A program made the translations under genes and the position numbers. A DNA stretch of 64,000 nucleotides from Candidatus Parvarchaeum acidiphilum ARMAN-4 (GTDB lineage Archaea > Nanobdellota > Nanobdellia > Parvarchaeales > Parvarchaeaceae): NCBI GenBank assembly GCA_002412065.1, contig GG730040.1:2311-66310 (forward strand), read 5' to 3'. Shown piece after piece: positions 34,092 to 56,162 of the stretch (the first letter of the stretch is position 1; each line of letters starts with the position of its first letter). Under the pieces are notes generated by a model. That model was not told the origin of the DNA. It saw only the letters and a list, made by a program, of their open reading frames with translations, and did no database searches.

Positions 34092-34775
34092 ATGTTAGAT
34101 AATCGTAAAGGTCAGTACTCTGTAGAATACACGATAATAATTGGTATTGGACTAAGCATTATTGCAGCATTTTTAATATATATCACCTTTTTTTACGGTT
34201 CTTTTTCATTGAGTTCATCAGCAAGTCAGATAAAAACTTTATCCGATACAATTGCAAATCATGTTAACTATATAGCCTCAGAAGGTCCAGGGTCTATGCA
34301 AACCTTTCCAATAACCCTTCCATTGTTGCAACAACAATATTCTTTTTTCTGTGGGGATATAATAAAATTGCAGACAACTACAGAATTGGGCGTTTCTAAA
34401 CCTGGTGAAAACGTGTCAGGGATGTTACCTTTAACGAGCGGAACATTTGATGCATTTGCACGAGCTGAAAATGGTAGTGCAATAATTGGGCTTCGTTTCT
34501 TAATTTCATATGTTCTTGGGTCTTACTCAGTTTCTTCTAATACCCTGTCTTATTCCCTTTCTTTTTATAACTACTCTGGGGATCTTAAAGGAACGGCTTT
34601 TAATATTTCATTGTTGTCTACAGGGGGGGCTTATATAACAAGTGCAAAGTCATCTACTACTTCAGGTCAGGCCTCAGGCACCCTCACATTGCCTTCTTCA
34701 GCCCCTGTTGAATATGTGCTTGAAGTTACTCCATCCGGATCGGGAGATTATTATTCTACTTGCGTAACGGGGTAA
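34092..34775 (+). CDS. archaeal type IV pilin-like protein (class III signal peptide)
   Basis: N-terminus MLDNRKG|QYSVEYTIIIGIGLSIIAAFLIY is a basic region, then a Gly at -1 and a hydrophobic helix. The mature domain is Ser/Thr-rich. Confidence 0.7.
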   Translation: MLDNRKGQYSVEYTIIIGIGLSIIAAFLIYITFFYGSFSLSSSASQIKTLSDTIANHVNYIASEGPGSMQTFPITLPLLQQQYSFFCGDIIKLQTTTELGVSKPGENVSGMLPLTSGTFDAFARAENGSAIIGLRFLISYVLGSYSVSSNTLSYSLSFYNYSGDLKGTAFNISLLSTGGAYITSAKSSTTSGQASGTLTLPSSAPVEYVLEVTPSGSGDYYSTCVTG

Positions 34776-34873
34776 TCTCTTGCTAATAAACGATTTTAAT
34801 ATTAGATTTTTTATATAAAAACAATAAAAACGAAAGCTTTATATACTACTTAGTTCCATAGTATTTAAATCTT

Positions 34874-35797
34874 ATGAAAGTAGTAACAAGCAAATATAAC
34901 ATCAAATGTCCCTCATGCGGTAGCACTTCAGTAATGTATGATAAGACAACTGGGGAATTAGTCTGCCAAAATTGCGGATATGTGATAGAGAGCGATACTA
35001 TAGACTACGGTAGGGAATGGCGTTCTTTTGAGGATGAAAGAGATGAAGGAAAAGGAAGGATGGGCTCTCCTTTAAGCTATGCAAAGTACGATAAAGGTAC
35101 AAGTACAGTAATTGGAAAAGCAAGTGAATCTATAAAACTCTCAAATGCAAATAGAAGAACTTTTTATAAATTAAGGAAATGGCAGCCTAGGATATCTACA
35201 GCATACGAAAGAAACCTAAAGTTTGCATTGACTGAATTAAGACATGCAAGTAATCGTTTACATGTTTCGAATATAATACAGGAAGAAGCAGCTAAAATGT
35301 ACAGAGAAGCGATAACAAGAAGACTTGTAAGAGGAAGATCAATGGAAAGTGTTATAGCAGGTGCGCTTTATGCCGCTGCAAGAAAACACAATAGACCTAT
35401 TACACTGGATGAGATATCTGAAACTTTTGAAGTTGAAAGAAAAGAAGTAGGGAAGGCTTACAGATTATTGTGCAGGGAACTAGGAATAAAAATATTACCA
35501 AGTTCACCAAGCGATTATATCTATAAATTTGCATCAGAATTAGGGGTTTCGAATAAAACTGTTTCGGATGCTGTAAAACTGCTTAAAGAAGCAGAAGACA
35601 AAGGGCTTACAAGTGGAAAAGGCCCAATGGGAATAGCAGCAGCAGTGCTTTATGTTGCAACTCTTATAAACAAAGAAAAGAAGACACAGAGAGATGCTGC
35701 AAAAGCCGCGGGTATAACGGAAGTTACTATAAGGAACAGGTACAAAGAGCTTTACAGAGTCTTAAACCTAAAAGAACGATTTAAGATAGATGATTAA
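34874..35797 (+). CDS. tfb: transcription initiation factor TFB (TFIIB)
   Basis: Zn ribbon CPSCGS...CQNCG followed by two cyclin-fold repeats. Confidence 0.9.
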   Translation: MKVVTSKYNIKCPSCGSTSVMYDKTTGELVCQNCGYVIESDTIDYGREWRSFEDERDEGKGRMGSPLSYAKYDKGTSTVIGKASESIKLSNANRRTFYKLRKWQPRISTAYERNLKFALTELRHASNRLHVSNIIQEEAAKMYREAITRRLVRGRSMESVIAGALYAAARKHNRPITLDEISETFEVERKEVGKAYRLLCRELGIKILPSSPSDYIYKFASELGVSNKTVSDAVKLLKEAEDKGLTSGKGPMGIAAAVLYVATLINKEKKTQRDAAKAAGITEVTIRNRYKELYRVLNLKERFKIDD

Positions 35798-35843
35798 GCA
35801 CAAGTATTAAAAATCTTTATTAATTGCTTGTATATTTATTGTT

Positions 35844-36923
35844 ATGGAGCTTTTTAATGAAGGTCAGGTTATATTCTATGCAGAAGATAAGCAGCTTAAA
35901 AAGGCAGGAGTATTCTTTAATCCTAAAAGAGAATTTGATAGAGATCTTAATGTTCTTGTAGTGTCATCTTTAATAAGTAATAAATCAGCGGGTTTAGAAC
36001 TATTTTCTGGTAGTGGGATAAGGGGTTTAAGGCTGTGTATAGAAAGTAATAAGTTTAACAAATTTACATTTAATGACATAAAATCATATGATACAGTAAA
36101 AAGAAATCTCGAACTTAATAAGAAAAGATTATTAAGCACTGATAAAACTGTAAATAATACCGATGCGACTTTATTTGAATCAAGCAGTAAATACGATTAT
36201 ATAGACATAGATCCTTTTGGCTCTCCAGTCTTTTACTTAGATTCTGCATTGAATTTATTAAAGAGAGGAGGTGTACTTGCAGTTAGCGCTACTGATACAG
36301 CGGCACTTCTTGGTAGCGCCCAAAAAGCCTGTCTAAGAAAATACGGTTCAGTATCACCTCAAACTTCATACAGCAATGAATTAGGGATAAGGATTCTTAT
36401 AAAGAAAGTAATCGAATATGGATTAAATCATTCTATAAATCTTGTACCTATCCTATTTAATTTTGAAGGCAATTTTATTCGTGTTTACTTTAAGGCAGAT
36501 CCTTCAAAAATTAAACCAAGCATTGGGTATGCTTATCAGTGTTATAAGTGTCCTAATAGGGTAACAAAAGCATTATTGAAGTGTGATTATTGTGGTGGCA
36601 GGATGCATAAAATTGGTCCAATGTGGCTTGGAAGCTTGCACAATGAAAAATATTTAAATAAAATGATTTCATCCTTGAAAAAGAACAGGATGAAATTTTC
36701 AGATAAAGCTTCGCTCAAACTTATGAATTATCTAAATGCAGTTTTGAGCGAATTGCCAGTATTCTCTTATTATACTACAAGTGAGATATCCTCCTTTTTA
36801 AAGCAACCAGAAATAAAGATATCAAAATTTAAGAACAGAACAGTTCTATCCCCAAAAGGTTTTAGAACAAAAAATAGTTTCTCCAATCTTATAGCTACTT
36901 TGGATTCGAAACAATCAGAATAG
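35844..36923 (+). CDS. trm1: tRNA (guanine26-N2)-dimethyltransferase Trm1
   Basis: IDIDPFGSPVFYLDSALNLLKRGGVLAVSATD plus a C-terminal Cys cluster. Confidence 0.8.
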   Translation: MELFNEGQVIFYAEDKQLKKAGVFFNPKREFDRDLNVLVVSSLISNKSAGLELFSGSGIRGLRLCIESNKFNKFTFNDIKSYDTVKRNLELNKKRLLSTDKTVNNTDATLFESSSKYDYIDIDPFGSPVFYLDSALNLLKRGGVLAVSATDTAALLGSAQKACLRKYGSVSPQTSYSNELGIRILIKKVIEYGLNHSINLVPILFNFEGNFIRVYFKADPSKIKPSIGYAYQCYKCPNRVTKALLKCDYCGGRMHKIGPMWLGSLHNEKYLNKMISSLKKNRMKFSDKASLKLMNYLNAVLSELPVFSYYTTSEISSFLKQPEIKISKFKNRTVLSPKGFRTKNSFSNLIATLDSKQSE

Positions 36924-37166
36924 CTTTATTTCTTGATTCATTGCTTGTCCAGGCAATCCTCTTCTAAATCTGATAACTACTCTTCCTTAATCACCGTGCG
37001 CCCTTACAATCACGCCCTTTATAGACGACTTTGAGAATGCAATTTCCACCTTTTTCCCGATGAATTTTTTGGCTTCTTCTCTGCTATTTACCTTTTCTAT
37101 GCTGGCTATAGCCTGATTAACTTTTTGTGTCTTTCTTCCTCTTCTATAAGATAATACTTTTGCCAT
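36915..37166 (-). pseudogene. rpl35ae: ribosomal protein eL33 (L35Ae) with in-frame TAA at 36987-36989. Possible substitution error or genuine pseudogene
   Basis: MAKVLSYRRGRKTQKVNQAIASIEKVNSREEAKKFIGKKVEIAFSKSSIKGVIVRAHGD, then a stop, then GRVVIRFRRGLPGQAMNQEIKLF. The stop sits exactly where the conserved HGN-S-GVVRAKF motif continues. Confidence 0.75.
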
Positions 37167-37167
37167 A

Positions 37168-38416: not shown

Positions 38417-40147
38417 ATGAACGTAAGAGAAATAAGTCAAATAGCAAAAAAATTTGCAGAGCCATCTACAAATGTTGGTTATCTAGAGCAATGGATAAGG
38501 GAATTAGAAGCCAGAGCCTCTAGTAGCGATTCTCATTATAGAGGAGAAATAGACTTTAGGTACGCTTCTCAGGAAGAATTACCGGATCCGGGGTTTGTTG
38601 GAAATGCAGCAGGTTATCATTTCACTAAGGATATACTAAAAAGATACCATTTTCAGCCAGAGTATTACTCTGTAATGCAGATGTTCGCAGCAATAGGTTA
38701 TAAACCACTTAGACTTGCAGAATCAGTAGATCCATCAGCTTTATCAAGCTTGATGAGTATGGCATTTGAAAAGCGAAAAAATCTAGAAGACAGGGTTATG
38801 CAGCTTTTAGGAACTATAAATACAATCTTAAAATCTCTCGTTTCCACAATTAATTCGCTTACAGAGCTTGATAGAAATCTTTATTTTTATGATGAATTAA
38901 AAGACCATGATAAAGAGAAATCGGAAGCAGCAGAATTGGCATTAAAAAGGATATTCCTTGATGTTGTTGACGCTAGAAAAGGGGGAGCAAGTCTTTCGGC
39001 ACTTTCAAGATCTCCTACACAAAGTCAGGGTGGCCCGGGTTTCATAGATATAATGTCAGTTTTCTATCAGGTAAAAAGCCTTAAGGATATTCAGCAGATT
39101 GATAGAAATGAACAGTACAAAAATATACTTAAGAACAGGTATATAGAATATGAAAAATGGAAGGAGATAAACGGAAATGAACTTCGACGCAGGAAATCGC
39201 TTTATTTAGAGTATCTTAAGAGCCAGATGGGTTCATTTAATCTATATGTGGATTGGTGTTCTAGTTATCTTTCAATTCTTTCAAAAATGGGCTGGAATAC
39301 GATTACTAAGGCAAAGGATTACTTTAATAAGGCTTCAAAGCCGGATATATTCGAAAATCAAAGCTTTTCCGTTACGGCGTTTGCATATAAATCAATTTAT
39401 GCAGGAGAGTACACAGCGGAATATGTAAAGCTGTTTAAAAGTAAAGGCCCGGAAATCCCTATACATGTAGAACCTAAAAGTCTGGCAGGCAATCTTAGCG
39501 CAAGAGGGTACGAGGAGCATAAAAGGTCCTTTATTTATGACAGGATAAAAAAATATGGGCCTCTTGTTATAGCAGGTGTAAAGCTACAGATGGATTTTAA
39601 AGAAAAACCAAGTAAGGAGCCAATACAACCGCCTTACGAAGGGACTATTTACTTTAATCTATTTCCGTATTGTTTTACTCCCGAAGAATTTTATCTTTAT
39701 AAGAAAGCTCAAATATCAAAGATACAGAAGACTGTATTCGCTTCTGTTGACCAGACCGTTTTTAATTCTTTAAGCGTCATAAAAAAGGATCTAGACAAGT
39801 ACGTTAAAGAAGCCGAGGAAGAAGAAAAAGCAAAGTCAAAGGAGAAAAAGCCGCAAAAGGATTACGCTTTCTTAGATATTTATAGGGCCTTTAAAGATGA
39901 TATCTCAGGCGTTTCAAAGTCTTTTTCAAGTATTGCTCCCTCAGAAAAGCATAAAACCAGATTTGACGAAGACCAGGCAGAGATATATGAAATGCTTGTT
40001 AATTCCAAACGTTTTGGTAGTATAAGTATTAAAAGAGCGCTTGAAATGGGTTTATTTATCTCAAATAGCGATTCAACATATATATACGATGAGCTTAAGA
40101 GAAGAGTTGGTCTGCTTAATTGGAAGGCCCCTTTTTCGGTGAATTAA
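38417..40147 (+). CDS. large hypothetical protein (576 aa), no recognisable domain. First gene of a cluster of small pilin-like genes
   Basis: Clean ORF with no P-loop, TM helix or signal peptide. Followed directly by 4 tiny membrane/pilin-like ORFs. Confidence 0.55.
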   Translation: MNVREISQIAKKFAEPSTNVGYLEQWIRELEARASSSDSHYRGEIDFRYASQEELPDPGFVGNAAGYHFTKDILKRYHFQPEYYSVMQMFAAIGYKPLRLAESVDPSALSSLMSMAFEKRKNLEDRVMQLLGTINTILKSLVSTINSLTELDRNLYFYDELKDHDKEKSEAAELALKRIFLDVVDARKGGASLSALSRSPTQSQGGPGFIDIMSVFYQVKSLKDIQQIDRNEQYKNILKNRYIEYEKWKEINGNELRRRKSLYLEYLKSQMGSFNLYVDWCSSYLSILSKMGWNTITKAKDYFNKASKPDIFENQSFSVTAFAYKSIYAGEYTAEYVKLFKSKGPEIPIHVEPKSLAGNLSARGYEEHKRSFIYDRIKKYGPLVIAGVKLQMDFKEKPSKEPIQPPYEGTIYFNLFPYCFTPEEFYLYKKAQISKIQKTVFASVDQTVFNSLSVIKKDLDKYVKEAEEEEKAKSKEKKPQKDYAFLDIYRAFKDDISGVSKSFSSIAPSEKHKTRFDEDQAEIYEMLVNSKRFGSISIKRALEMGLFISNSDSTYIYDELKRRVGLLNWKAPFSVN

Positions 40148-40149
40148 TT

Positions 40150-40323
40150 ATGAACAGCAAAGGACAAATGCCAACAACTGAGATTATAGCAATAATACTT
40201 GCCATAATAGTACTTTCAGCAGGTATTGTAATAGCAATTCTATTTAAAGGGGCTGGAGCGACAATCTCTAAGGATATGACTAATGTTTTTTCCTTCAGCT
40301 GGCTTTACGGTAAGGGCATATGA
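40150..40323 (+). CDS. small pilin-like protein (class III signal peptide)
   Basis: Starting at the internal Met: MNSKG|QMPTTEIIAIILAIIVLSAGIVIAILF. Confidence 0.5.
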   Translation: MNSKGQMPTTEIIAIILAIIVLSAGIVIAILFKGAGATISKDMTNVFSFSWLYGKGI

Positions 40324-40490
40324 GCGAAAAAGGAGTTGTAAGCGGTATTTTTCTTTATATTATATTGATAATAATCGGTATATTACTAATAATCTTTTTT
40401 CTAGAGATCTTTACACCTTACAAGTTTACAGATCTTTTTAAGGCGTTTATATCAAAGTCAAACACCTTGAATGTGAGTAATTATGATTAA
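40320..40490 (+). CDS. small pilin-like/membrane protein (56 aa)
   Basis: MSEKG|VVSGIFLYIILIIIGILLIIFFLE. The ATG overlaps the previous stop (ATGA). Absent from the ORF track because it is under 60 aa. Confidence 0.45.
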   Translation: MSEKGVVSGIFLYIILIIIGILLIIFFLEIFTPYKFTDLFKAFISKSNTLNVSNYD

Positions 40491-40632
40491 TATGAATAAA
40501 AAAGGGGTAGAAAGCTACATTTTGCTTGTTATAATAACATTAATAGTACTGATTCTAATAGTTATATTCTACCTTTTTCTTTTCTCTCCAGGTACACTGC
40601 ATAAACTCATTCCTTCGGTGCCAATTATATAA
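40483..40632 (+). CDS. small pilin-like/membrane protein (49 aa)
   Basis: MINMNKKG|VESYILLVIITLIVLILIVIFYLF. Confidence 0.45.
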   Translation: MINMNKKGVESYILLVIITLIVLILIVIFYLFLFSPGTLHKLIPSVPII

Positions 40633-40633
40633 C

Positions 40634-40795
40634 ATGGAAGCAATTTGGTTTTATGTAATTGCTATTATCCTAGGGATAACTTTAGTTATCGTTTATATCC
40701 TGTTTGTAGGGCCTTCTGCATTGTCAAAAGATATCTCCGGGTTTTTTACAAGTATAAGCTCATCGATAACATCGGGATTTAAGAACGCATATTAA
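40634..40795 (+). CDS. small membrane protein (53 aa)
   Basis: MEAIWFYVIAIILGITLVIVYILFVG is a single TM helix followed by a Ser-rich tail. Confidence 0.4.
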   Translation: MEAIWFYVIAIILGITLVIVYILFVGPSALSKDISGFFTSISSSITSGFKNAY

Positions 40796-40827
40796 CATTT
40801 TTATACTTTCGATAGCTATTAGGGATT

Positions 40828-41403: not shown

Positions 41404-42930
41404 ATGACATTTTTCAAGGAAGAAATAGAGAATAGAGAATACCAAACTAAAATATTTGAAACAGCAAAGACGGGTAATACACTTGTAGTGTTGCCAACCG
41501 GTCTAGGTAAAACAATAATAAGTGCAATGCTAGCAAATTATCGTTTGGAAAAGTACCCCTCATCTAAAGTGCTTTTTCTGGCCCCTACAAAACCTCTTGC
41601 AAATCAGCATTACAGAACCTTCTCTTCATTGCTTTCGCTTAAACAAGGTATGGCCAGCGGTTCCGTTTCAAGTAGTAGTAGAGGAAAAATCTATGAAGAT
41701 GCTCAGATAATATTTGCAACACCACAGACAATCGAGAATGACATGGAAAAAAAAGTTATAGATTTTTCTGATTTTAGCCTTTTAATAGTTGACGAAGCAC
41801 ATCATGCAATAGGAAATTATTCATATGTTAAAATCGCAAAATTGTACTCAGAACAGTCCTTTCATCCGCTTTTGTTGGGTCTTACTGCTTCCCCAGCATC
41901 AGATAGAGAAAAAATAAAGACAATATGTAGTAATCTTCATATAGCAAATGTTGAGATTCGCTCAGATGATGATCAGGATGTTATACCTTATATACAAAAA
42001 AAGGAAATAAACGAAATAAAAGTTGATTTACCCCCAAAATTAATTGAATTGTCTAATGATATAAAACTTCTCATTAGCGAGTCAATAAGTGAGTTACAAG
42101 AAACAGGGTTGCTAAAAAACACACAGAAAAGCAGAATAAATAAGGTGACTATTCTTTTACTTCAAAAAAGCCTTCAAAGGCAAATGTTGAGTGGTAAAAG
42201 AAATTATTATCTTATCAGAGGGATAATAATTACCTCCAAGCTTTTGAAGCTTTATCATGCTTATAACCTGCTTTCAACTCAAAGTCTTACTGCTTTTCTT
42301 AATTTTTTGGAAAAGATACAAAAAGGAAAAGCAAAGACAGATAAAGAGCTTTCATCTAATAGCAGGTTTATTGAAATAACTAAACGAACTTCTGAATTAG
42401 TAGAGCAAGGAATTGAACATCCAAAATTAAAGCAGCTTGAATCAATTTTTTCTAATTACTTCAATGAAGAGAAAAAAGCGATAATCTTTGCGCAGTATCG
42501 TGACACAGTGGATGTTATATGCAATAGTATATCAAATCTACCAGGGGTAAGGCCTATAAAATTTATAGGACAAGGTAAAGGAGGGCTATCACAAAAAGAG
42601 CAGGTAAATATAATAAAGGATTTTGAGTCGGGAGTATACAATGTTCTTGTTTCCACCAGCGTTAGTGAAGAGGGCATGTCAATAAAAGGCGTGGATATTG
42701 CAATTTTTTACGAAACCATACCTAGTGCGATAAGAAACATACAAAGAAGAGGGAGGGTTGGCAGATTTTCAGCAGGCAGTATCTTTATACTAATAACCAG
42801 AGGCACCAACGATGAAGGCTATTATTGGCTTTCTAAAAAAAGAGAAAAGACAATGAAAAATATAATAAAGAACATAAAAGAAAATCCAAACACAATAAAA
42901 CAAGATGGGACACTACACCCTTTTATTTAA
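41404..42930 (+). CDS. hef: Hef/FANCM-like superfamily 2 helicase (helicase domains only, no ERCC4 nuclease domain)
   Basis: REYQTKIFETAKTGNTLVVLPTGLGKT (Q motif and Walker A), DEAH box LIVDEAHHAIGN, SAT-like LGLTASP, and helicase C-terminal motifs QRRGRVGR. Confidence 0.8.
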   Translation: MTFFKEEIENREYQTKIFETAKTGNTLVVLPTGLGKTIISAMLANYRLEKYPSSKVLFLAPTKPLANQHYRTFSSLLSLKQGMASGSVSSSSRGKIYEDAQIIFATPQTIENDMEKKVIDFSDFSLLIVDEAHHAIGNYSYVKIAKLYSEQSFHPLLLGLTASPASDREKIKTICSNLHIANVEIRSDDDQDVIPYIQKKEINEIKVDLPPKLIELSNDIKLLISESISELQETGLLKNTQKSRINKVTILLLQKSLQRQMLSGKRNYYLIRGIIITSKLLKLYHAYNLLSTQSLTAFLNFLEKIQKGKAKTDKELSSNSRFIEITKRTSELVEQGIEHPKLKQLESIFSNYFNEEKKAIIFAQYRDTVDVICNSISNLPGVRPIKFIGQGKGGLSQKEQVNIIKDFESGVYNVLVSTSVSEEGMSIKGVDIAIFYETIPSAIRNIQRRGRVGRFSAGSIFILITRGTNDEGYYWLSKKREKTMKNIIKNIKENPNTIKQDGTLHPFI

Positions 42931-43397
42931 TTGCCAGTTATCTCAGTCTCGCAAGTTCCACCAGCAGAGTATTTTACTCCGTCTATAGAAACATTGCTAC
43001 CAGAGGTATTACCTATTATTATAGTATTAATACTTGGGTCTTTAATGGTGAAATCACCTGAGAATGAATTAATTCCTGCGGTATAATTACCTATTCTGTA
43101 TATATTAGAAGGGTTGCCATTTAAGTTACTTGCAAATACACTGTAGACTAATCCTGGGCTCCCATCTGATACAACTATCTTGAATCTATTTTGTTGAGAT
43201 GATGTGCTTATATTTGTTACATTAGCGTTGCATGGTGCAGGAGATCCGCTTCCACTATTTACTATTCCAGAGGGTAATATAGCAAAATGAAATACTGAGC
43301 TGGCTATAACTACTCCTATTATTAAAAATGAGATTAAAAGAATTATAACTATGAAATAATCAACCAAACTTGTACCTTTTAATTTGTTACTGCGCAT
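42927..43397 (-). CDS. pilin-like protein (class III signal peptide); last gene of a surface-protein operon
   Basis: From the internal Met: MRSNKLKG|TSLVDYFIVIILLISFLIIGVVIASS. The mature part is Gly/Ser/Asn-rich with a single Cys pair. Confidence 0.6.
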   Translation of the reverse strand: MRSNKLKGTSLVDYFIVIILLISFLIIGVVIASSVFHFAILPSGIVNSGSGSPAPCNANVTNISTSSQQNRFKIVVSDGSPGLVYSVFASNLNGNPSNIYRIGNYTAGINSFSGDFTIKDPSINTIIIGNTSGSNVSIDGVKYSAGGTCETEITGN

Positions 43398-44863
43398 ATA
43401 TAAACTAAATTTCTCCCCAAAAAGTTTGGTTTTGATATCCCTATCTGCTGAGGCAGGGAAGCAACGAAGTAGATTAAAGACTGTGCACATTGCTCTAATC
43501 CTGTAGCGTACAAAGCCGAATAAGCAATTTTGCCGGCATATGTAACTGCGTTAGGTGCAATATCATCCTTACATATAGAGTTATTAAAGCATTCTGCAGT
43601 TCCGAATCCTGCAAGTCCTATTCCTACTAGCAATCCAGGATTTGATGGCGCAAGAAGATCAGCGCCTATTCCCGATGCAACTGCTCTTGAACATTCATCT
43701 TCTATCCCCGAACTAGGGTAATTGTTAAGGAATGTAGCAGGTTCACATTCACTTGGCAAGCTTATTGAACTAGGAGGGAGTCTTGTGCCAGCAAGAGAAT
43801 TTAAATAGACTATGTATATCTGGGCTTTGTTGATTGATTTGCTGCTGTTCGGAAGCACAAATCCACTGCTGCTTGCGTTGCTCAAATTTTTATAGCTGAA
43901 TATAAGATTATCTCCAGGTCTTAAGTAAGTCGCATATGATTCATTTACTATAGAAGTGCTTTTTACTGGCTCAGTCAAAACACAGGAAGATGGTGCTTCA
44001 TATGAATTTGTAGTACTGTCATACCCTACAGTACAATTATTTCCATTACAGAAGTTAGTATACAGGTCTGTACAAGAATCAGTTTTACCGCTAATTGTTG
44101 AACATGTGTCCAAGGTGGTGTTAAAGGAACAGCCTTGTGATTCTTCGCATAAATCACTAGATATATTCATTGCAGCTGTAGGGGGTTTTGAACCATTTAA
44201 AGGAATATACTTTGTTGCAGTATATCCTTGTGTAAATGGCTGGTAACCAGGTTCGCTTCTACAGTTAAAATAATTAGATGACTGGGCCTCGCATATACTA
44301 GGATTGCTTAAATCACATGTAAATCCGTTTAAATTTGTGCTAGTTAAAGGATCAGAGCAGGACTGCACTGAAGTATGATTAAGGCAACTAACTTCAGTAG
44401 TATAAGCATTGCTTTCAAGATAAGTTGTAAGGTTATTTATTGTAAAGTTTTTATTTATATTTACATTAATAGCTGCACATGTTGCAGGGGAACTAGTAAG
44501 TACAGTCAAACCTTGGTTTGCACCATACTGGTTCCAACAGCTGGCTAAATCAGTTGCTACTGTTGAGAATACTTGAGATGGCTGGGCGCTAGGCCCATAA
44601 CCGGAAGTTGAAGTAGTGCATCCGAAAAGAGGAGGAGCTATTCCCAGAGCCTTAAGTGTACCACTTAAACAAAAGAATTTTGATACGCAAAGCCCGTTAT
44701 AATAAAAATTAGTGAATTCAGAACTTGCATAGCATATACCGCTGTTTGAAAGCGTTATTCCTACTATTAAAAGATAGCCGGCAATTGCTACTATTACAAC
44801 TATGAATATTACTGCTAAGATTATAAATAAAATACTCTCTCCAGGTGTTTCTGCCATAATCAA
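43379..44863 (-). CDS. large membrane-anchored Ser/Thr/Cys-rich surface protein (494 aa)
   Basis: N-terminal TM anchor (ILFIILAVIFIVVIVAIAGYLLIVGI), ~25 Cys, many N-x-S/T sequons and low-complexity Ser/Thr/Asn. Confidence 0.65.
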   Translation of the reverse strand: MIMAETPGESILFIILAVIFIVVIVAIAGYLLIVGITLSNSGICYASSEFTNFYYNGLCVSKFFCLSGTLKALGIAPPLFGCTTSTSGYGPSAQPSQVFSTVATDLASCWNQYGANQGLTVLTSSPATCAAINVNINKNFTINNLTTYLESNAYTTEVSCLNHTSVQSCSDPLTSTNLNGFTCDLSNPSICEAQSSNYFNCRSEPGYQPFTQGYTATKYIPLNGSKPPTAAMNISSDLCEESQGCSFNTTLDTCSTISGKTDSCTDLYTNFCNGNNCTVGYDSTTNSYEAPSSCVLTEPVKSTSIVNESYATYLRPGDNLIFSYKNLSNASSSGFVLPNSSKSINKAQIYIVYLNSLAGTRLPPSSISLPSECEPATFLNNYPSSGIEDECSRAVASGIGADLLAPSNPGLLVGIGLAGFGTAECFNNSICKDDIAPNAVTYAGKIAYSALYATGLEQCAQSLIYFVASLPQQIGISKPNFLGRNLVYICAVTN

Positions 44864-44920
44864 TTAGTGTTTTTATTTAATAAATTAATATCTTGTTCAA
44901 TAATTTCACTCAAATTGTTT

Positions 44921-45811
44921 TTATTGTCCGGGTATACAAACGAATACTCTGCTTTGGCTGTATATCATGTAATTGCTTAATTTGCCACATAAAGGCACAT
45001 AATAGTCACACCCACTCGTTTCATTTACTACATTTAAAGAGGGGTTGCCATTACTAAGCGAGCTTACGGTTTCCCTAGTTTGGTTTGTAGTCTCATTTGA
45101 GTATGCGCATATAGCTAAGTTGTTTATTTCAGGTTGTTGGTATCTTGCAACGTATTTGCATTGGTCTGTAAAGCTTATATCGCAGTTTTTAATTCCATTT
45201 GAAGGATAACCAAAGTAAGTTACAGTATAACTTGAGTTTGAAAGGTTATCAGAAGGATTGATATAAGCAGCGTTTCCATTGCTTCCGTTTGTTATAAACA
45301 CCATTTGGAGAGGATAATTTCCATTGTAATTACTGTCGATATCACTTATAATAGATGAATAATTTAAATTTTTACTTTGGCTGATAATTGACCCTTTGTA
45401 ACAGTTAAATATTTGGTCTAGATTACTAGCTGATAGAATTTGAGACCCTATTACAGCGTTACTACCTGAGAATAAACTAAAACAGGAAGAGGCTTCAGTA
45501 TAAAATAAAGATGCAAAATTTGTGCTACCCTGTTCGTCTATATTTGAGGACTGGAGACATTCTTTTTGTACTTGTGCGGACTGCGTTGGGCTTACTAATA
45601 TATTCGAAAGCCCAAAAAATGAAGCTGCACTAGTTAGAGGAGATAAAAACGTGTTTACTATCTTATACTGTGTAAATGCCGTAAAGCAACTTAATCCAAA
45701 GTTCAATGTCCCGAAGGAAGTAATAAGGGAAAAAGATACAACTGCAAGTACTATACCCGCCACTATAACAAGTATAACAAAAGCTATTGTTAATAGGATG
45801 CCCTCCTCCAT
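44921..45811 (-). CDS. membrane-anchored Ser/Asn-rich, Cys-containing surface protein (296 aa)
   Basis: N-terminal TM (ILLTIAFVILVIVAGIVLAVVSF), multiple Cys and N-glycosylation sequons. Confidence 0.6.
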   Translation of the reverse strand: MEEGILLTIAFVILVIVAGIVLAVVSFSLITSFGTLNFGLSCFTAFTQYKIVNTFLSPLTSAASFFGLSNILVSPTQSAQVQKECLQSSNIDEQGSTNFASLFYTEASSCFSLFSGSNAVIGSQILSASNLDQIFNCYKGSIISQSKNLNYSSIISDIDSNYNGNYPLQMVFITNGSNGNAAYINPSDNLSNSSYTVTYFGYPSNGIKNCDISFTDQCKYVARYQQPEINNLAICAYSNETTNQTRETVSSLSNGNPSLNVVNETSGCDYYVPLCGKLSNYMIYSQSRVFVCIPGQ

Positions 45812-45972
45812 TACGAGCCACCGCCCAGCAGATTTCCAAAATATGCAAATGGAGAACTACTATGAGAACTTGCATAAAATAGGATTATCACTAGTCCTAT
45901 GATAGCTACAGCTGTTATTATAACTAGAATCAACCATATAATCCTCCATTCTACGCTTCCTTTATTATTCAT
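45811..45972 (-). CDS. micro membrane protein (53 aa) with class III-like N-terminus
   Basis: MNNKG|SVEWRIIWLILVIITAVAIIGLVIILFY. Its stop overlaps the next ATG (TAATG). Tightly packed between 45974..46483 and 44921..45811. Confidence 0.4.
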   Translation of the reverse strand: MNNKGSVEWRIIWLILVIITAVAIIGLVIILFYASSHSSSPFAYFGNLLGGGS

Positions 45973-45973
45973 A

Positions 45974-46483
45974 TTACTGTCCTATGCATGCTGCACAATA
46001 AGGCCCGTCCCCAGATATGCATGCAGGCACATTTATTGCACAGTTTTGTATGTCTGTTGCGTTGTTTGCTACTATCGTACTCTCAGAACAACTAAATAAA
46101 TCGGCCGTATTAGTTGGAGATACAACACTACATGCGCTTGTTATATTTGCAGGAGGGCTGGCCATGCACGATTCTACTAAAGAGGTGTTCCCTTGTCCAT
46201 TAACCCAATAATCATAATAACACCAATGTCGGATACAGGTCTGCACTGCTGTAGCCGCGTTGAAACATGCATTTTCATCATAGCAACGAAAAAGTGCTGT
46301 ACCCTCCATCCTATTTGGATATCCATATTCTGCGCTTGTGAACTGGTTCTGTAGTAAAGCGGTGGAAGTATCGCATCCTACTGGGAAAATAGAGGAATAA
46401 TTATTGTAAAACAGAAAGAACATAGTAAGTGCTATAACTATCCCGATAATGACTTCAAAGAATAGAAACTGTTCAACATCCAT
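45974..46483 (-). CDS. membrane-anchored cysteine-rich protein (169 aa, ~18 Cys)
   Basis: N-terminal TM (FFEVIIGIVIALTMFFLFY), then a Cys-dense domain (CYDENACFNAATAVQTCIRHWCYYDYW...CAACIGQ). Confidence 0.6.
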   Translation of the reverse strand: MDVEQFLFFEVIIGIVIALTMFFLFYNNYSSIFPVGCDTSTALLQNQFTSAEYGYPNRMEGTALFRCYDENACFNAATAVQTCIRHWCYYDYWVNGQGNTSLVESCMASPPANITSACSVVSPTNTADLFSCSESTIVANNATDIQNCAINVPACISGDGPYCAACIGQ

Positions 46484-47006: not shown

Positions 47007-47444
47007 TCAATTGATTATATTTCCGTTTGATGCTATGACTGGAGAGTATGAAATATTAGTTGGGGTATAATATATATAGCCGTTTCCACTGAAAGAACTT
47101 CCTAATGAGACCGAAGTTAAATTGCATTCTGTAGACTCTAAAGCAGGAAGATATGTTTTTGAGCATACAAAGTTGGTGTAATTTACTCCGGATATTATCA
47201 TTGATATCCCATCTATTTTTATATTCTCATTTAACAGGTTTTGGAATTCAATATAAAATGTAGATTTTGAAGGGATATAACCCTGCTGCAATACACGGAA
47301 ACCGGAGAATCCTGAATAACTTGGAGTTGATGTAGTCCCTGTCAGAGACGGGAAAAAAGTAAATATTATGTAAAAGATTGATGCTATTACTATTATAGCT
47401 ATCCCATACATTAGCACCATCTCAAGTGATTCCTGTGCTCTCAT
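47007..47444 (-). CDS. pilin-like protein (class III-type signal peptide)
   Basis: MRA|QESLEMVLMYGIAIIVIASIFYIIFTFF followed by a Ser/Thr/Asn/Tyr-rich beta-type domain. Confidence 0.55.
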   Translation of the reverse strand: MRAQESLEMVLMYGIAIIVIASIFYIIFTFFPSLTGTTSTPSYSGFSGFRVLQQGYIPSKSTFYIEFQNLLNENIKIDGISMIISGVNYTNFVCSKTYLPALESTECNLTSVSLGSSFSGNGYIYYTPTNISYSPVIASNGNIIN

Positions 47445-47519
47445 ACTTGTTTTATTGGTTTTTAAAATATAAGTATGTCTCTTTGATTATTAGAAAGATA
47501 TTTTAGTCACTTTAGATTA

Positions 47520-47721: not shown

Positions 47722-47907
47722 TTAAGTCGTGAATGTTTTAAATTCCGCTTGCTTTTTGTTGATGTCTTTTTTATAAGTTTCATTGCTTACTGTATGGTTT
47801 TTAACCGTGAATGTCCTCCCGCAATAGAAGCATTTTACTTCTTTTAAAGCAGAAGTTTTTCTGTATTTACCGCATTTAGGGCACTTAACAATCCTGTAAA
47901 CAGTCAT
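47722..47907 (-). CDS. small zinc-ribbon protein (61 aa)
   Basis: CPKC...CFYC in a basic protein. Translationally coupled to the upstream minD-like gene (ATGA overlap). Confidence 0.5.
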   Translation of the reverse strand: MTVYRIVKCPKCGKYRKTSALKEVKCFYCGRTFTVKNHTVSNETYKKDINKKQAEFKTFTT

Positions 47908-48623
47908 ATTTTTATTAATTGCTTTGCTAGATTAGTTATATCCTTAGCAGCAAAGCTTTTTGGAGAAGACAAAACTAAAGGAACACCTATTTTTAATGCA
48001 TTATACACCTTTTTGTCATCCCTAATCCTCCATACGTTTTTTATTTCCATAAGGTCCTTTGTTTCTTTTTCTGTCATTTGATCTTTTATTCTGTTATTTA
48101 CTTTGTTTATTACAAGTCCAATTATATTGATATTTGCGTTTTCTAGTTCTTCTTTTAGTTTTTTAGCTTCTATTATAGAGGTTATATCCGGATTAGACAC
48201 TATAAGACTGCTGGCATTTTTGATTAGTTTTATAAAATTTATCTCATAAGACGGTCTTGAGTCTATTATTATGAAATCATATCTATCTTCAATCTTTTCA
48301 ATGTAACGGTTTATGTTTATTAGTTTGTTTGGCAGTCTGCTCTCTTCGGTTCTTGTTACCCTTGAAGGTAAAATGTGGAATTTGGGGTTATCTCCCATGT
48401 ATATGGCATTTTCAATTTCGGTTCTACCGTTCAATACATCTTCTAATGAGTACTTAAACCCAACAAAGCCATAATAAATCGCGACATGTGGAGTTTCTAG
48501 GTTTGCGTCTATAAGTAAGGCACTTTTATTTAATTCAGAAATAGCTGTAGCTAAGTTCACAGATGTAGTTGTTTTTCCTACACCGCCTTTTGGGCTCATC
48601 ACTACTATAATCTTAGCCGACAT
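47904..48623 (-). CDS. minD: MinD/ParA-family P-loop ATPase
   Basis: Deviant Walker A IVVMSPKGGVGKTTTSVNLA. Walker B-like FIIIDSRP. Confidence 0.85.
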   Translation of the reverse strand: MSAKIIVVMSPKGGVGKTTTSVNLATAISELNKSALLIDANLETPHVAIYYGFVGFKYSLEDVLNGRTEIENAIYMGDNPKFHILPSRVTRTEESRLPNKLININRYIEKIEDRYDFIIIDSRPSYEINFIKLIKNASSLIVSNPDITSIIEAKKLKEELENANINIIGLVINKVNNRIKDQMTEKETKDLMEIKNVWRIRDDKKVYNALKIGVPLVLSSPKSFAAKDITNLAKQLIKI

Positions 48624-48655
48624 ATTAATAATAAAAGATGAACTAATTAATATTT

Positions 48656-49180: not shown

Positions 49181-49445
49181 CTTTATAATACCTTTTATTT
49201 ACTGTGTTACCCCAACTAAAATTTCCAATTTCATTTTTATTCTCAACTGTCACCTTTCCCTCCTTTAATGCAAGGTACAAATAATGGTAGACAAGCCTGC
49301 TTGAAATTTTTCTCCCTGTTTTTTTGAGCGTTTTATATATCTCATAACCGGTTTTGTTGCCATTTGATAGCTCGGCTAATATTGCTTCCATAAGCTCTTT
49401 GTCTATTTTTCTTACCATTTTAGCTACATTGTGGCATCGATTCAT
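49173..49445 (-). CDS. small winged-helix transcriptional regulator (PadR/ArsR-like)
   Basis: LMEAILAELSNGNKTGYEIYKTLKKTGRKISSRLVYHYLYLALKEGKV is a typical recognition helix and wing. Confidence 0.5.
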   Translation of the reverse strand: MNRCHNVAKMVRKIDKELMEAILAELSNGNKTGYEIYKTLKKTGRKISSRLVYHYLYLALKEGKVTVENKNEIGNFSWGNTVNKRYYKAK

Positions 49446-49926
49446 TTATAGAAAGGCATATGTACTTTAATATATCATTATAAGCAGTTTGATTGTTTGC
49501 GAATCCGCCAACCTTATAGTACTTTCCATTAAATATGATCATCGGAACGCGGTTTATCCCTACCTGATTAAATATTGAAACTGCTGAATCTGGCAAGTTA
49601 TCAGTTGTATTGCTATTGTATGCAGATATATTAAATTTCCAAGCACAAAAATACCCACTGTAAAATGTATTGTTTCCCCATAAACCAAAAAGGGAAGTTA
49701 CATTTTGAAATGAATTCACAGTATCTGTGCAAGTTCTGCAATTATCAGCATAATAAATAATTAATGAAGGCTCATTCTGTGAGCATAGCCCTGACATGTT
49801 TAAGTTAGTTTCATGAAATGAATAAAAGTTGTTTAATGAATAAGTTTGGTAATAAAAGAATATCGCTATTATTAAAAGCACAACGATTATAACAGTATAC
49901 AAATAATATCTAAATCTAGTTAGCAT
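49420..49926 (-). CDS. membrane-anchored thioredoxin-fold protein with CxxC (extracytoplasmic thiol-disulfide oxidoreductase candidate)
   Basis: N-terminal TM (YLYTVIIVVLLIIAIFFYY), then LIIYYADNCRTCTD (CxxC) and RVPMIIFNGKYY (thioredoxin-fold cis-Pro region). Several N-x-S/T sequons. Confidence 0.6.
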   Translation of the reverse strand: MLTRFRYYLYTVIIVVLLIIAIFFYYQTYSLNNFYSFHETNLNMSGLCSQNEPSLIIYYADNCRTCTDTVNSFQNVTSLFGLWGNNTFYSGYFCAWKFNISAYNSNTTDNLPDSAVSIFNQVGINRVPMIIFNGKYYKVGGFANNQTAYNDILKYICLSINESMPQCS

Positions 49927-50215
49927 AAAATGAAATGTTTAATTTTTCTATTTCGTTTTGGCTGCAGCTGTTTCCTTTATTGACTATGCATATGTTAGTG
50001 TAATTGCCTAAATCCTTATAGACATAACTGTAGGCGGGGGATGAAAAATAAGAAGGATCAACTATAAGATTGAATATTTTTGAATAGCTACAGGAAGTTG
50101 CATTTATAAGTCTATAAACTTGAAATTGAAAAGGGCTGTATATCCCAGTTTCATTGTTATAATTGAAGATATGCCCGTTTCCCTTAAAAACAATGTTTAT
50201 AGTCATCTGTTTCAT
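49916..50215 (-). CDS. hypothetical small protein (99 aa), Cys- and N-sequon-containing
   Basis: ORF in the operon with flanking secreted proteins. No TM. Confidence 0.3.
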   Translation of the reverse strand: MKQMTINIVFKGNGHIFNYNNETGIYSPFQFQVYRLINATSCSYSKIFNLIVDPSYFSSPAYSYVYKDLGNYTNICIVNKGNSCSQNEIEKLNISFYAN

Positions 50216-50240
50216 TTTTAATAAGGAGTTTATTATATCA

Positions 50241-50811
50241 CTATAATTTGTGCTCCCTTTTGAATAAATTTAAGTCATATTTCAGTGGATTAACGATCGA
50301 ATAATTCTGTAATCCAGATGCGGCTATCTCAGAATAATATGCCTTCATCTGTGAATAAGTGATATTAAAAAGTTGTATTATCTCAGTAGAGTTAAGTTTA
50401 TTATCTATAAATTGGTAAAGCTGGCTTTCTGCAGCAGTGCAGTTTGTGTAATTTTCAACACTGCACATTGATACAAGAGAGATATCTCTTAATATATCGC
50501 TGTATTCTTTTTGTACTTCTGACGAATTTATGGGTATTGTCGGAGCAAGAGGTTCCATTTCATAAGTACACTCATTAAACGATTGAGTTGTTTGATAATC
50601 CCCCATAGAAATAGTATAAGTCTTTGTCCGATAGCATACTTAAATTTATATTGTAACTGGAAATAAAATCCCCAAGTTTTATGCTGTTTGAGAGATTTTG
50701 AGGCTTGTTTATAAAAGTCGGCTTAAAGGGGTAAACATACAATATTGCAGTAAAAGCTGCAAGTAATATAACCAATACAATTAGTACTTTTATTACGCCA
50801 TTACTTTCCAT
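50241..50811 (-). CDS. membrane-anchored small secreted protein, probably one gene split at a G5 run (50581-50585) into ORFs 50575..50811 and 50241..50606
   Basis: The upstream ORF gives a TM anchor (VIKVLIVLVILLAAFTAILYVY) ending ...YYFYGGLSNNSIV*. Removing one G fuses it to YQTTQSFNECTYEMEP..., a 4-Cys N-sequon-rich domain. Confidence 0.4.
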
Positions 50812-53176: not shown

Positions 53177-53177
53177 A

Positions 53178-54113: not shown

Positions 54114-54178
54114 AAAGAATTTCTAAGCTCTGATTTTATTAATTCTTAATGTATTTGCGCTTTTAAAGGCTTTTTGTT

Positions 54179-54913: not shown

Positions 54914-54964
54914 ATGTAAAATAGACCATAAATAGTATAAATATCCTCTGCTTTTAATCTAAAT

Positions 54965-55618
54965 ATGAAAGGCCAGTTTTCATTTGAATTCATGATAGAT
55001 GTTGCATTTGTTTTAGTTCTAATAGCCTTCATAGCAGTTTTCTTTGCGCATATCTCCGCTGGAAATCCAACGGTTTCAGATATGAATGGGATTTGTTATG
55101 AGATGGCCGATTCAATAAATTCCATGGCAAACTCCAATGGTTTTCAAACTATACAGTACTTGCCGTTACTTACATTTACAAAACAGGAGAATTACACAAT
55201 AAACGTTTCAAATGGAATAATAATAATATATGAAAAGTCACTTTATGGAGGAAAATTACTTGCAGGGCAGGATTTAACTTCATGCGGTGCAGATACTGCG
55301 CTCACAGAAAATGAATCATTTGGTTTATCAAATCTTGTTTTGTATACAAACCAAACAAACATTGCATTGGCCTATGCTTATGCCAATTACTCCGGCAACC
55401 TCCCAAATTACATCTTTGTAGGCGGATTTACAGGTGCGGTTAATTTGTCATTGGACTATTCAAATGGTACTATCACTACATTAGATGTTCAGAATTCGCC
55501 ATTTACATACTTTGCAGATACAAAATCTATTCCATTACCGGCTGGTGTTTATAATTTTGTAGCAACTAGCGTGGCCTCTCCTGACATTTACGTCGATTTG
55601 CCTTTTTCAGTCGGTTAA
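54965..55618 (+). CDS. archaeal type IV pilin-like protein (class III signal peptide)
   Basis: MKG|QFSFEFMIDVAFVLVLIAFIAVFFAHI. The mature domain is Asn/Thr/Tyr-rich. Confidence 0.7.
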   Translation: MKGQFSFEFMIDVAFVLVLIAFIAVFFAHISAGNPTVSDMNGICYEMADSINSMANSNGFQTIQYLPLLTFTKQENYTINVSNGIIIIYEKSLYGGKLLAGQDLTSCGADTALTENESFGLSNLVLYTNQTNIALAYAYANYSGNLPNYIFVGGFTGAVNLSLDYSNGTITTLDVQNSPFTYFADTKSIPLPAGVYNFVATSVASPDIYVDLPFSVG

Positions 55619-55685
55619 TTTTATTTTTTTACTTTTTTAAAAGGTAAACATAAAGCTTAAATATGATTATTTTTTAATGTAACCT

Positions 55686-56162
55686 ATGGCAAAAGGACAG
55701 TCAGCATTAGAATACATGATGACTTATGGTTGGGCAATACTAATCATAGTTATCGTAGCTGTAATCTTGTATTCTATGGGAATTTTCAACCCTAGAGCAA
55801 GTGTAACTGCAACAAGTAGTGGGTTCAGCCCATTCGCAGCAAGTGCAGCAGTCTGCAGTAGCAGTAGTAGTAAATTAACAGTAGCTTTTACTGTTGGTGG
55901 ACTACCTAACGGAGCTTCTTCTGCAACCATAACTGGAGCAAGTTACTCGTCTGGAAGTGGAATTAGTCCGGCTATTAACTCTGGCACAGCAAGCCCAACG
56001 GTGGTGTCTTCTGGTAGCAGCTTTAATGTAACCTTCAGCACTGTAACATGTACACCAGGGGTTGGATTTAGTGCTTCTGGTGTAGTGAACTACTCCGTTA
56101 CAACAGCAGCAGGTACTGCAACTTACTCTGCAACAGGAACAATAGCAGGAACAGGCAGCTAA
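55686..56162 (+). CDS. archaeal type IV pilin-like protein (class III signal peptide), Ser/Thr/Ala/Gly-rich
   Basis: MAKG|QSALEYMMTYGWAILIIVIVAVILYS, then a low-complexity S/T/A/G domain. Confidence 0.7.
   Translation: MAKGQSALEYMMTYGWAILIIVIVAVILYSMGIFNPRASVTATSSGFSPFAASAAVCSSSSSKLTVAFTVGGLPNGASSATITGASYSSGSGISPAINSGTASPTVVSSGSSFNVTFSTVTCTPGVGFSASGVVNYSVTTAAGTATYSATGTIAGTGS

Follow-up and report, generated by a model that had tools for sequence, protein, structure and literature searches.

The 64,000-nucleotide stretch of Candidatus Parvarchaeum acidiphilum ARMAN-4 analysed here (contig GG730040.1, positions 2,311 to 66,310; the whole stretch is called the window below) contains at least five genuine, unannotated type IV pilin genes and several probable mini-pilin genes. 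On the sequence evidence, the explanation that we favour, and hold to be likely, is that the encoded proteins are type IV pilins with class III (prepilin-type) leaders, which would be assembled by machinery encoded elsewhere. Parvarchaeum is an archaeon of acid mine drainage, and its DPANN lineage is host-dependent and joined to Thermoplasmatales via pili-like structures (PMC5864196, PMC10134863). Published tables list an assembly ATPase, a platform protein and a prepilin peptidase for the genus but almost no pilin, which leaves the ARMAN–Thermoplasmatales filaments without candidate subunits.

Relatives of the window were found by scanning species-representative genomes with one of its proteins, of 576 amino acids (aa). 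This gave 15 syntenic loci, assigned to Candidatus Parvarchaeum, Candidatus Parvarchaeota, ARMAN-5 or 'Nanoarchaeota archaeon', from which orthologues of every candidate were taken (11-15 species per candidate). The term 'distant relative' is used for the genome whose 576-aa protein is 44% identical, in which the whole gene order is retained. A first-pass annotation, made from the letters of the window alone, had guessed at an episymbiotic archaeon with a small genome; the guess was a good one, given the Parvarchaeum, Parvarchaeota and ARMAN-5 origin of the related loci and the host dependence of the lineage (PMC5864196, PMC10134863).

Class III-type N-termini in the window

The first-pass annotation listed nine proteins with prepilin-like N-termini. 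All nine were found at the positions given, each with a [K/R][G/A] junction just ahead of a hydrophobic helix. The junction is K-G in eight of them and R-A in one (47007), the residue after it is Q, V, S or T, and hydropathy then indicates one hydrophobic segment. The proteins are named below by their lowest coordinate in the window, and a slash marks the junction.

34092-34775, plus strand: 227-aa pilin-like protein, N-terminus MLDNRKG/QYSVEY
40150-40323, plus strand: 57-aa mini-pilin-like protein, N-terminus MNSKG/QMPTTE
40320-40490, plus strand: 56-aa mini-pilin-like protein, N-terminus MSEKG/VVSG
40483-40632, plus strand: 49-aa mini-pilin-like protein (probably 46 aa, start 40492), N-terminus (MIN)MNKKG/VESY
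42927-43394, minus strand: 155-aa pilin, paralogue of 55686 by BLASTP, N-terminus MRSNKLKG/TSLVDY
45811-45972, minus strand: 53-aa mini-pilin-like protein, N-terminus MNNKG/SVEW
47007-47444, minus strand: 145-aa pilin, paralogue of 55686 by hhalign, N-terminus MRA/QESLEM (A, not G, at -1)
54965-55618, plus strand: 217-aa pilin-like protein, N-terminus MKG/QFSFEF
55686-56162, plus strand: 158-aa pilin, likely major subunit, N-terminus MAKG/QSALEY

The accompanying claim that these N-termini are class III signals is borne out strongly for five proteins (34092, 42927, 47007, 54965 and 55686), on the basis of a conserved junction, a variable leader joined to an invariant mature end, a pilin-like fold and an extracellular composition. 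For the four proteins of about 50 aa (40150, 40320, 40483 and 45811) it is plausible only. Four further candidates, 40634, 43379, 44921 and 45974, lie beyond the original list and are described with their gene neighbours.

We screened the window with a class III-style rule of our own, which asks for K or R at -2, for G, A or S at -1, for a 16-residue window with a mean hydropathy of at least 2.0 starting within +8, and for no charge at +8 to +20. The rule matches 9 of 77 genes and none of 143 non-gene open reading frames (ORFs) that are 45 aa or longer. Of the listed proteins, seven out of nine satisfy it; 54965 misses it solely through an Asp within the helix, and 42927 solely because the ORF caller chose an upstream ATG. 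The rule is unspecific, as it also matched SecD and an 86-aa protein with two transmembrane segments at 8310, so the argument rests on other evidence, chiefly conservation. SecD was set aside as a false positive and the 86-aa protein for its two transmembrane segments and lack of supporting evidence; a 168-aa gene at 49420 was rejected for having no junction. The 86-aa gene (8310-8570, plus strand; motif EKRA/VDAAIG) adjoins a HIT-family gene. In the metagenome-assembled genome (MAG) PWUQ01, it is the FlaK peptidase gene that adjoins a HIT-family gene (PMC10134863 supplement); no similarity to Peptidase_A24 was found in the 86-aa protein.

Conservation of the junction and composition of the proteins

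In every candidate family the residue at -1 is G or A only, and G persists in the distant relative. Gln at +1 is retained in four families (34092, 47007, 54965 and 55686), with T, A or S in its place in 42927. The same four retain Glu at +5, where 42927 has D or E, and it is these four that show the EppA-type combination of Q +1 and E +5. A control from the same window, the N-terminally anchored protein of the 297-aa gene (49916-50811), varies between G, A and K at the corresponding position; it was rejected as a candidate because this position is not conserved. The small ORFs have ratios of nonsynonymous to synonymous substitution rates (dN/dS) of 0.04-0.35, with synonymous sites saturated, and are therefore real genes under purifying selection.

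The candidates with globular parts also differ from the rest of the window in composition. Charged residues make up 8-10% of them (2.5% in 55686) versus 25%, serine plus threonine 16-32% versus 12.7%, and N-glycosylation sequons number 1.3-3.2 per 100 residues versus 0.7, which is 2-4.5 times more. Their cysteine counts are all even (2, 2, 24, 10, 12, 2, 2 and 2). To judge from sequence, this is the composition expected for secreted, disulfide-bonded and glycosylated proteins of an acidophile.

The 55686 family and its predicted fold

Protein 55686 belongs to a family of 242 homologues, all annotated as 'hypothetical' and none with a Pfam domain; all those with a named source are from Parvarchaeota. 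The leaders vary in length and sequence (MAKG, MVKG, MVRKG, MVKRA, MKTKA, MKRKA, MSRQKS and long ...KSKRS or TKRRS forms). The mature sequence from Gln +1, QSALEYMMTYGWAILIIVIVAVILYSMGIFNP, is almost invariant, with the mature end QSALEYMMTYGWAILII. An invariant hydrophobic helix preceded, across a [KR][GAS]/Q junction, by a leader that is free to vary has the appearance of a cleaved class III signal, and no other single line of evidence is as strong.

An AlphaFold2 model of 55686, built from a 52-sequence alignment, has a mean predicted local distance difference test score (pLDDT) of 82.5; in it, a helix (residues 7-30) is connected by a short linker to a beta-sandwich of eight strands. In a Foldseek search against the PDB, the model first matches the Sulfolobus solfataricus pilus 6w8x (E 8.9e-4, probability 1.00) and then the Sulfolobus acidocaldarius Aap pilin 8q30 (E 4e-3, probability 0.97), with generic immunoglobulin (Ig)-like folds ranking below the two Sulfolobus pilins. 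The pilin-like beta-sandwich was found by model for 55686 only and is extended by homology to 47007 and 42927. Profile comparison by hhalign relates 47007 to the 55686 family with 93.7% probability over 122 columns, and BLASTP with 55686 reaches the orthologues of 42927 over about 150 aa (E down to 3.6e-6).

Being short, rich in serine and threonine, with a single cysteine pair and the most conserved helix, 55686 is, on sequence features, the best candidate and likely the major subunit; 47007 and 42927, from their homology to it, are likely minor pilins. Sister species carry two tandem 55686-type copies at the syntenic site (L028:10001-11146 and L029:10001-11010), where the window has one. Four Parvarchaeota homologues of 55686 (P0076, P0077, P0082 and P0100) have the globular domain after a longer N-terminus with several hydrophobic segments and no class III leader.

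Among 1.84 billion cluster representatives, a profile built from the 55686 alignment matches 5,416 proteins at E <= 1e-3; at E <= 1e-10 it matches 1,226. Many among the best 150 matches are 330-1,012 aa long and carry the pilin module at the N-terminus. In 100 long members, Laminin_G_3 is present in 37 and DUF2341 in 22, with lactonase, NHL or YncE-type beta-propellers in fewer. The named members of this wider family are all from Parvarchaeota. The 55686-type N-terminus is shared by a DUF2341 protein encoded about 8 kb upstream of the window (…TKRRS/QSALEYMMTYGW…). DUF2341 proteins with class III signals from archaeal clade 1 loci have been proposed to be pilus-tip adhesins (PMC4858521).

This upstream DUF2341 protein is 468-502 aa long (L027:17705-19201, minus strand; also L010 and L026). 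In a near-identical 207-kb contig its leader (…LTLLTKRRS/QSALEY) has no ATG, GTG or TTG after the preceding stop codon, and in another strain the gene is split into parts of 113 and 356 aa. Beyond this gene the strains differ: NFACT is found in one, and an Exo_endo_phos protein with a KaiC/FlaH-like PF06745 ATPase fragment in the other.

The remaining pilins

The 12 orthologues of 34092 share the junction KK[GA]/QYS.EY, in which G and A interchange at -1 and Glu +5 is retained; the distant orthologue reads AAG/QFTTEY. Serine and threonine account for 26% of 34092 and charged residues for 9.7%, and it has 2 Cys. A protein identical to it carries the JGI label 'UPF0333 family'. Its orthologues in two related species (L015:4642-6348 and L025:4651-6396) are 568-581 aa long, versus about 227 aa, which suggests that a C-terminal domain has been added or that the gene is fused to the one that follows.

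Protein 54965, whose orthologues read M[KR]G/QFSFEF, has 7 sequons, 2 Cys and 9.7% charged residues, and its gene lies immediately upstream of 55686 in all assemblies. It and 34092 form separate families that are weakly alike over the first 64 columns only. The orthologues of 42927 follow K.[KN]G/[TAS]S..[DE][YT], with the acidic residue at +5 retained and IG/STTVEK in the distant relative; the protein has 5 sequons, 2 Cys and 9% charged residues. Those of 47007 follow M[KR][GA]/Q[EQ]..E, with KRG/QATLE in the distant relative.

Mini-proteins and the 576-aa operon

Three of the listed mini-proteins and an additional paralogue are encoded directly after the gene for the 576-aa protein:

38417-40147, plus strand: 576-aa cytoplasmic protein, first gene of the operon, with no transmembrane segment and no Walker A motif
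40634-40795, plus strand: 53-aa leaderless mini-protein paralogue (ME[AS][IV]W...), absent from the first-pass list

The four small genes come after the 576-aa gene in the 15 Parvarchaeum relatives and in the distant relative, and their stop and start codons abut or overlap. The 576-aa protein has no signal peptide or transmembrane segment and is therefore cytoplasmic; it gave no Pfam, PDB-sequence, PHROG or PADLOC match. Its family has 44 members, and every one with a named source is from DPANN (Parvarchaeota and Acidifodinimicrobium, with distant members in Nanoarchaeota and Woesearchaeota). An AlphaFold2 model (pLDDT 73.5) predicts long helical hairpins and a beta domain, with no fold match in the PDB. 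In a distant Nanoarchaeota homologue the next gene does not encode a small transmembrane protein. The 576-aa gene always adjoins L35Ae and a nucleotidyltransferase, even in a distant Nanoarchaeota genome. Scans of the proteins of this operon, and of the five-gene cluster described below, with PHROGs and PADLOC gave no viral or defence match.

Profile comparison makes 40150, 40320, 40483, 40634 and 45811 mutual paralogues. The start of 40150 lies 3 nt past the stop of the 576-aa gene; its motif KGQMP[IT]TE is invariant in 15 orthologues (RKG/EMPITE in the distant relative), its dN/dS is 0.04-0.11, and it has Q at +1 with E at +6, the remaining mini-proteins having no Q. The start of 40320 overlaps the preceding stop, and its orthologues always have G or A at -1, with K, N or S at -2 and KKG/SIQS in the distant relative. 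It aligns with 40483 at 95.7% probability in hhalign, and 40483 with 45811 at 90.5%. The 15 orthologues of 40483 keep N[KN]KG/[VL]ESYILL and mostly start with MNKKG; the distant relative has KKG/ATDY.

The leaderless 40634 (hhalign probability against 40150, 90%; dN/dS about 0.07) starts with MEAIWFYVIAI in every Parvarchaeum species. In the distant relative, a complete leader precedes the mature sequence of the orthologue (MGIFNKKG/VTEATIYYIIAI), and 40634 begins at about +2 of that mature sequence. The leaderless protein thus starts roughly where cleavage would leave the mature one, which supports a class III cleavage site in this family.

Pilins of about 50-60 aa with no globular domain are known (EpdE/Flp; bioRxiv 10.64898/2026.04.22.720090), and the size and architecture of 40150, 40320, 40483 and 45811 fit this type. 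By analogy, these four proteins (49-57 aa) are probably pilins of the EpdE/Flp type.

A conserved five-gene cluster

Protein 45811 is encoded in a cluster of five co-directional minus-strand genes with overlapping ends (42927-46483). In order of transcription these encode a 169-aa protein (12 Cys), the 53-aa mini-protein, a 296-aa protein (10 Cys), a 492-aa protein (24 Cys) and the 155-aa pilin 42927. Three of the five members are new to the list:

45974-46483, minus strand: 169-aa Cys-rich protein with an N-terminal helix, first gene of the cluster; a cluster member, not a pilin
44921-45811, minus strand: 296-aa Cys-rich surface protein, possible minor pilin, N-terminus MEEG/ILLT
43379-44857, minus strand: 492-aa Cys-rich surface protein with an N-terminal helix, N-terminus MAETPG/ES...

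The gene order and the N-termini are retained even in the distant relative. The N-terminal MDVEQFLFFEV of 45974 is conserved and has no G, A or S junction. Orthologues of 45811 read [NK]K[GA]/SVEWR (KKG/AVEW in the distant relative) with a dN/dS of 0.04-0.07, and the stop codon of this gene overlaps the start of 44921 by one base. The ME[EQ]G/ILL of 44921 is invariant and satisfies a relaxed form of the rule; the protein has 7 sequons and no Pfam match. In 43379 the N-terminus MAET[PA]G/E[ST]F is invariant, the distant relative included, and the protein has 12 sequons, 10% charged residues and no Pfam match. It is a possible minor pilin or tip protein, although this assignment is weak because -2 is not basic. 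By analogy with other filament systems, the cluster probably encodes a tip or base sub-complex.

Assembly machinery

The first-pass annotation had also stated that the 64 kb hold no prepilin peptidase, assembly ATPase or platform gene, and the Pfam data and our scans of unannotated genes confirm it: PF00437, PF00482 and PF01478 are absent from the precomputed Pfam annotation of the region from about -8.8 kb to +66 kb and from our own scans. The polytopic membrane proteins of the window are Nuo subunits and SecDF only. Proteins with a Walker A motif are limited to V-ATPase A, CDC48, SMC, two GTPases and TrmB, together with a MinD-like ATPase known from Pfam:

47904-48623, minus strand: MinD/ParA/FleN-type P-loop ATPase (Pfam AAA_31, CbiA, ParA), not an assembly ATPase

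This is the sole P-loop protein near the pilins, and its location close to the pilin cluster is conserved. Clade 1 type IV pilus loci of archaea come with FleN/MinD ATPases (PMC4858521), and by analogy this one is a possible regulatory accessory of the pilus. An ATPase, platform or peptidase gene was likewise not seen around two 55686 paralogues that lie as tandem copies at the same syntenic site (P0056 and P0106), at another Parvarchaeota DUF2341-pilin locus or at the locus of the distant relative.

The annotation's inference that the machinery is encoded elsewhere agrees with a published genus-level table (Table S6, PMC10134863). Its Parvarchaeum entries are ARMAN-4, ARMAN-5 and eight UBA MAGs, and each is credited with a single arCOG01818 ATPase, a single K07991 FlaK, one or two copies of arCOG01812 TadC and, except for UBA506, one arCOG00589 FleN. 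For the pilin groups, arCOG02420 and arCOG03871, the score is 0 in nearly every one of these genomes. The peptidase is entered only as K07991 FlaK, with no mention of arCOG02300 (EppA) in the supplementary text (PMC10134863). The Parvarchaeum pilins are the missed part of this pilus gene set, simply unannotated.

Proposed assembly and alternative explanations

Following the established type IV filament pathway, the precursors would be inserted via Sec and then cleaved after the G or A at -1 by an aspartyl prepilin peptidase of the FlaK/PibD/EppA type, encoded elsewhere. Loss of the short basic leader would give a new N-terminus that usually starts with Gln and has Glu at +5, like EppA substrates, and the hydrophobic N-terminal helix would move from the membrane into the filament core. 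Assembly would be the work of a single secretion-type ATPase (arCOG01818) together with a TadC-like platform (arCOG01812), neither of them encoded in the window. Lectin-like, DUF2341 or beta-propeller fusions may equip the fibre with adhesins that contact the Thermoplasmatales host.

Several points weigh against this explanation. Cleavage and filament formation are predicted here, from sequence and model. PF04021 (Class_IIIsignal/DUF361/UPF0333) matches 34092 alone, at 14.7 bits versus a cut-off of 23.7 (E 0.031), and an NCBIfam scan of the candidates gave zero matches; both are family profiles, unlike rule-based predictors such as FlaFind. A Pfam scan of the candidates likewise gave nothing above threshold, and no Flp or Epd profile in Pfam or NCBIfam matches the mini-proteins. 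The residue at -2 is mostly K or R, with N or S in some orthologues of 40320 and A or I in the distant orthologues of 34092 and 42927. Glu is found at +2, +3 or +6 of the mini-proteins or is absent, and is not at +5. Against solved pilins the 55686 model reaches only low Foldseek TM-scores (about 0.3), since its helix is set at a different angle to the domain. None of six pilin loci inspected adjoins assembly genes, and the presence of the machinery in this genome rests on the published genus table, not on a genome search.

For the four operon mini-proteins we consider a different nature possible, if doubtful: they may be single-pass subunits of a Parvarchaeales-specific complex that is anchored to or organised by the 576-aa protein, in which case their paralogue 45811 may be of the same kind and the K-G pair would reflect the positive-inside rule and a helix-capping glycine. 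Such a complex would account for the tight linkage between the mini-genes and the 576-aa gene, whose start and stop codons overlap or abut, for the conservation of the five-gene unit in 15 species and the 44%-identical relative, and for a partner that is cytoplasmic. It also fits mini-proteins that are recognised by no profile, have no Glu at +5 in any member, vary at -2 in 40320 and include one, 40634, that is wholly leaderless. However, the G or A at -1 is invariant across all mini-protein orthologues, distant ones included, the leaderless protein begins about where cleavage would leave the mature one, and domain-less pilins of this size are known from EpdE/Flp. Moreover, 45811 sits in the pilin-like cluster, away from the 576-aa gene, and a distant homologue of the 576-aa protein has no small transmembrane genes after it. 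We think it distinctly unlikely that 38417-40795 is an undescribed Parvarchaeales-specific membrane module in which the coiled-coil 576-aa protein drives or organises mini-pilin-like subunits with no canonical ATPase or platform; if true, the module could underlie the cell-to-cell connections between ARMAN and Thermoplasmatales.

The larger proteins have a single N-terminal transmembrane segment, an extracellular composition, no assembly genes nearby and no match to a curated pilin profile, all of which would suit uncleaved, signal-anchored surface glycoproteins associated with the cell wall or surface layer, as opposed to filament subunits. This is most plausible for 43379, 44921 and 45974, which have no basic -2 or no junction. 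As an account of the larger proteins we nevertheless find it very unlikely, given that a mere anchor needs no invariant G or A, no Gln +1 with Glu +5 and no varying leader beside an invariant helix, that the control anchor of the same window does not conserve the junction position, and that archaeal pilins head the PDB matches of the 55686 model. The proteins might also be class III substrates that form a short pseudopilus or bindosome-like display of lectin or adhesin domains instead of long pili. The very frequent fusion of the pilin module to Laminin_G_3, DUF2341 or beta-propeller domains points in that direction, and archaeal type IV filament machineries do display binding proteins with class III signals (bioRxiv 10.64898/2026.04.22.720090). 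We judge such a display unlikely, as the short pilins with no extra domains (55686, 47007 and 42927) are the most conserved and resemble filament subunits, and pili-like structures between ARMAN and Thermoplasmatales have been reported (PMC5864196). That the pattern is a chance product of AT-rich coding, with protein starts rich in Lys and Ile/Leu, could be argued from the 31-39% G+C of the window and from the match of our rule to SecD. We give this next to no credence: junction conservation across species already refutes it, none of the 143 non-gene ORFs matches, dN/dS is far below 1, and the fold and family evidence is contrary. Type IV pilins with class III leaders remain our preferred explanation.

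Relation to known systems

The window pilins are closest in junction to the Epd pili of Methanococcus maripaludis and the archaeal clade 1/System 1 pili (Makarova 2016; Sivabalasarma and Albers 2026), and in fold to the Sulfolobus adhesive pilins. With the Epd/System 1 pili they share the [KR][GA]/Q junction with Glu +5 of EppA substrates, many minor pilins per system, class III proteins with DUF2341 adhesin domains, a nearby FleN/MinD ATPase and stand-alone pilin loci away from the machinery; in these systems the major pilin can be without a globular domain (PMC4371748, PMC4858521). System 1 has been reported in DPANN (bioRxiv 10.64898/2026.04.22.720090), and ARMAN genomes are not covered in Makarova 2016 (PMC4858521) or its supplements. 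Unlike the Epd/System 1 pilins, the candidates do not match the Pfam or NCBIfam models of these pilins, and their genes do not form a pilus operon but lie scattered among housekeeping genes (L15e, GINS, Hef, SecDF). System 1 typically has two platform genes, whereas most Parvarchaeum genomes have one arCOG01812 TadC (ARMAN-5 has two), and the Parvarchaeum peptidase is listed as FlaK K07991 in the published table.

The Sulfolobus adhesive pili (6W8X, and Aap, 8Q30) share with the 55686 model, over its full length, an N-terminal helix followed by an Ig-like beta-sandwich. Their subunits are glycosylated, low-charge proteins of acidophiles, as those of the window are predicted to be. However, 55686 has only 15-18% sequence identity to them, with TM-scores of about 0.3, and the Sulfolobus junction, RA/LS, processed by PibD, differs from that of the window pilins (PMC4371748). 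The PilA1-6 paralogues of Haloferax volcanii likewise combine a near-identical hydrophobic N-terminal domain with differing leaders and globular parts, and none is encoded beside assembly genes (PMC4371748); they differ in their [DR]A/VS junction, their halophilic lineage and the absence of lectin-like fusions. Saccharibacteria, episymbionts of the candidate phyla radiation, resemble Parvarchaeum in lifestyle, being ultrasmall, with reduced genomes and type IV pili for host attachment (PMC9894109, PMC11623550). Their machinery and pilins are bacterial, and the likeness is a lifestyle analogy only, with no homology beyond the superfamily.

Other features of the window

The housekeeping genes of the window include those for V-type ATPase, CDC48, SMC/ScpAB, ribosomal proteins, NuoJKLMN, TFB, Trm1, GINS, Hef, SecDF and L15e, and its G+C content is 31-39%. 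Near-identical contigs (99.2-99.9% identity) are present in several assemblies, including GCA_002503995.1 (DASV01000012.1, 140 kb) and JGI 3300038731 (Ga0188182_0001, 207 kb). Compared with same-population assemblies (99.6-99.9% identical), the window has single-base indels at positions 3453, 10666-10667, 24586, 50255, 50575 and 63830. These break SMC (9530-12855) into three ORFs, a Band_7 gene (24334-25265) into two and the gene of the 297-aa membrane protein (49916-50811) into three, and the glycogen synthase is truncated. They are probably sequencing or assembly errors, not pseudogenes, and none falls inside a pilin candidate. A 288-aa protein with two transmembrane segments, encoded at 17300-18166 on the minus strand, gives a sub-threshold match to a CdvA-like coiled-coil profile (PF18822, E 3.6e-4).

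Significance

The present analysis supplies subunit candidates for the ARMAN filaments: a likely major family of 242 members, all annotated as hypothetical, together with several likely minor pilins, the conserved cluster of five genes and candidate mini-pilins. These DPANN pilins are missed entirely by current profile libraries. The operon that pairs a new cytoplasmic protein with four mini-pilin-like genes is a further point of interest. The assignments are now testable, by looking for processed N-termini in acid-mine metaproteomes and by fitting the model into cryo-electron microscopy maps of ARMAN filaments. The Parvarchaeota-wide fusions of pilin modules to lectin-like, DUF2341 or beta-propeller domains form a plausible host-recognition toolkit.

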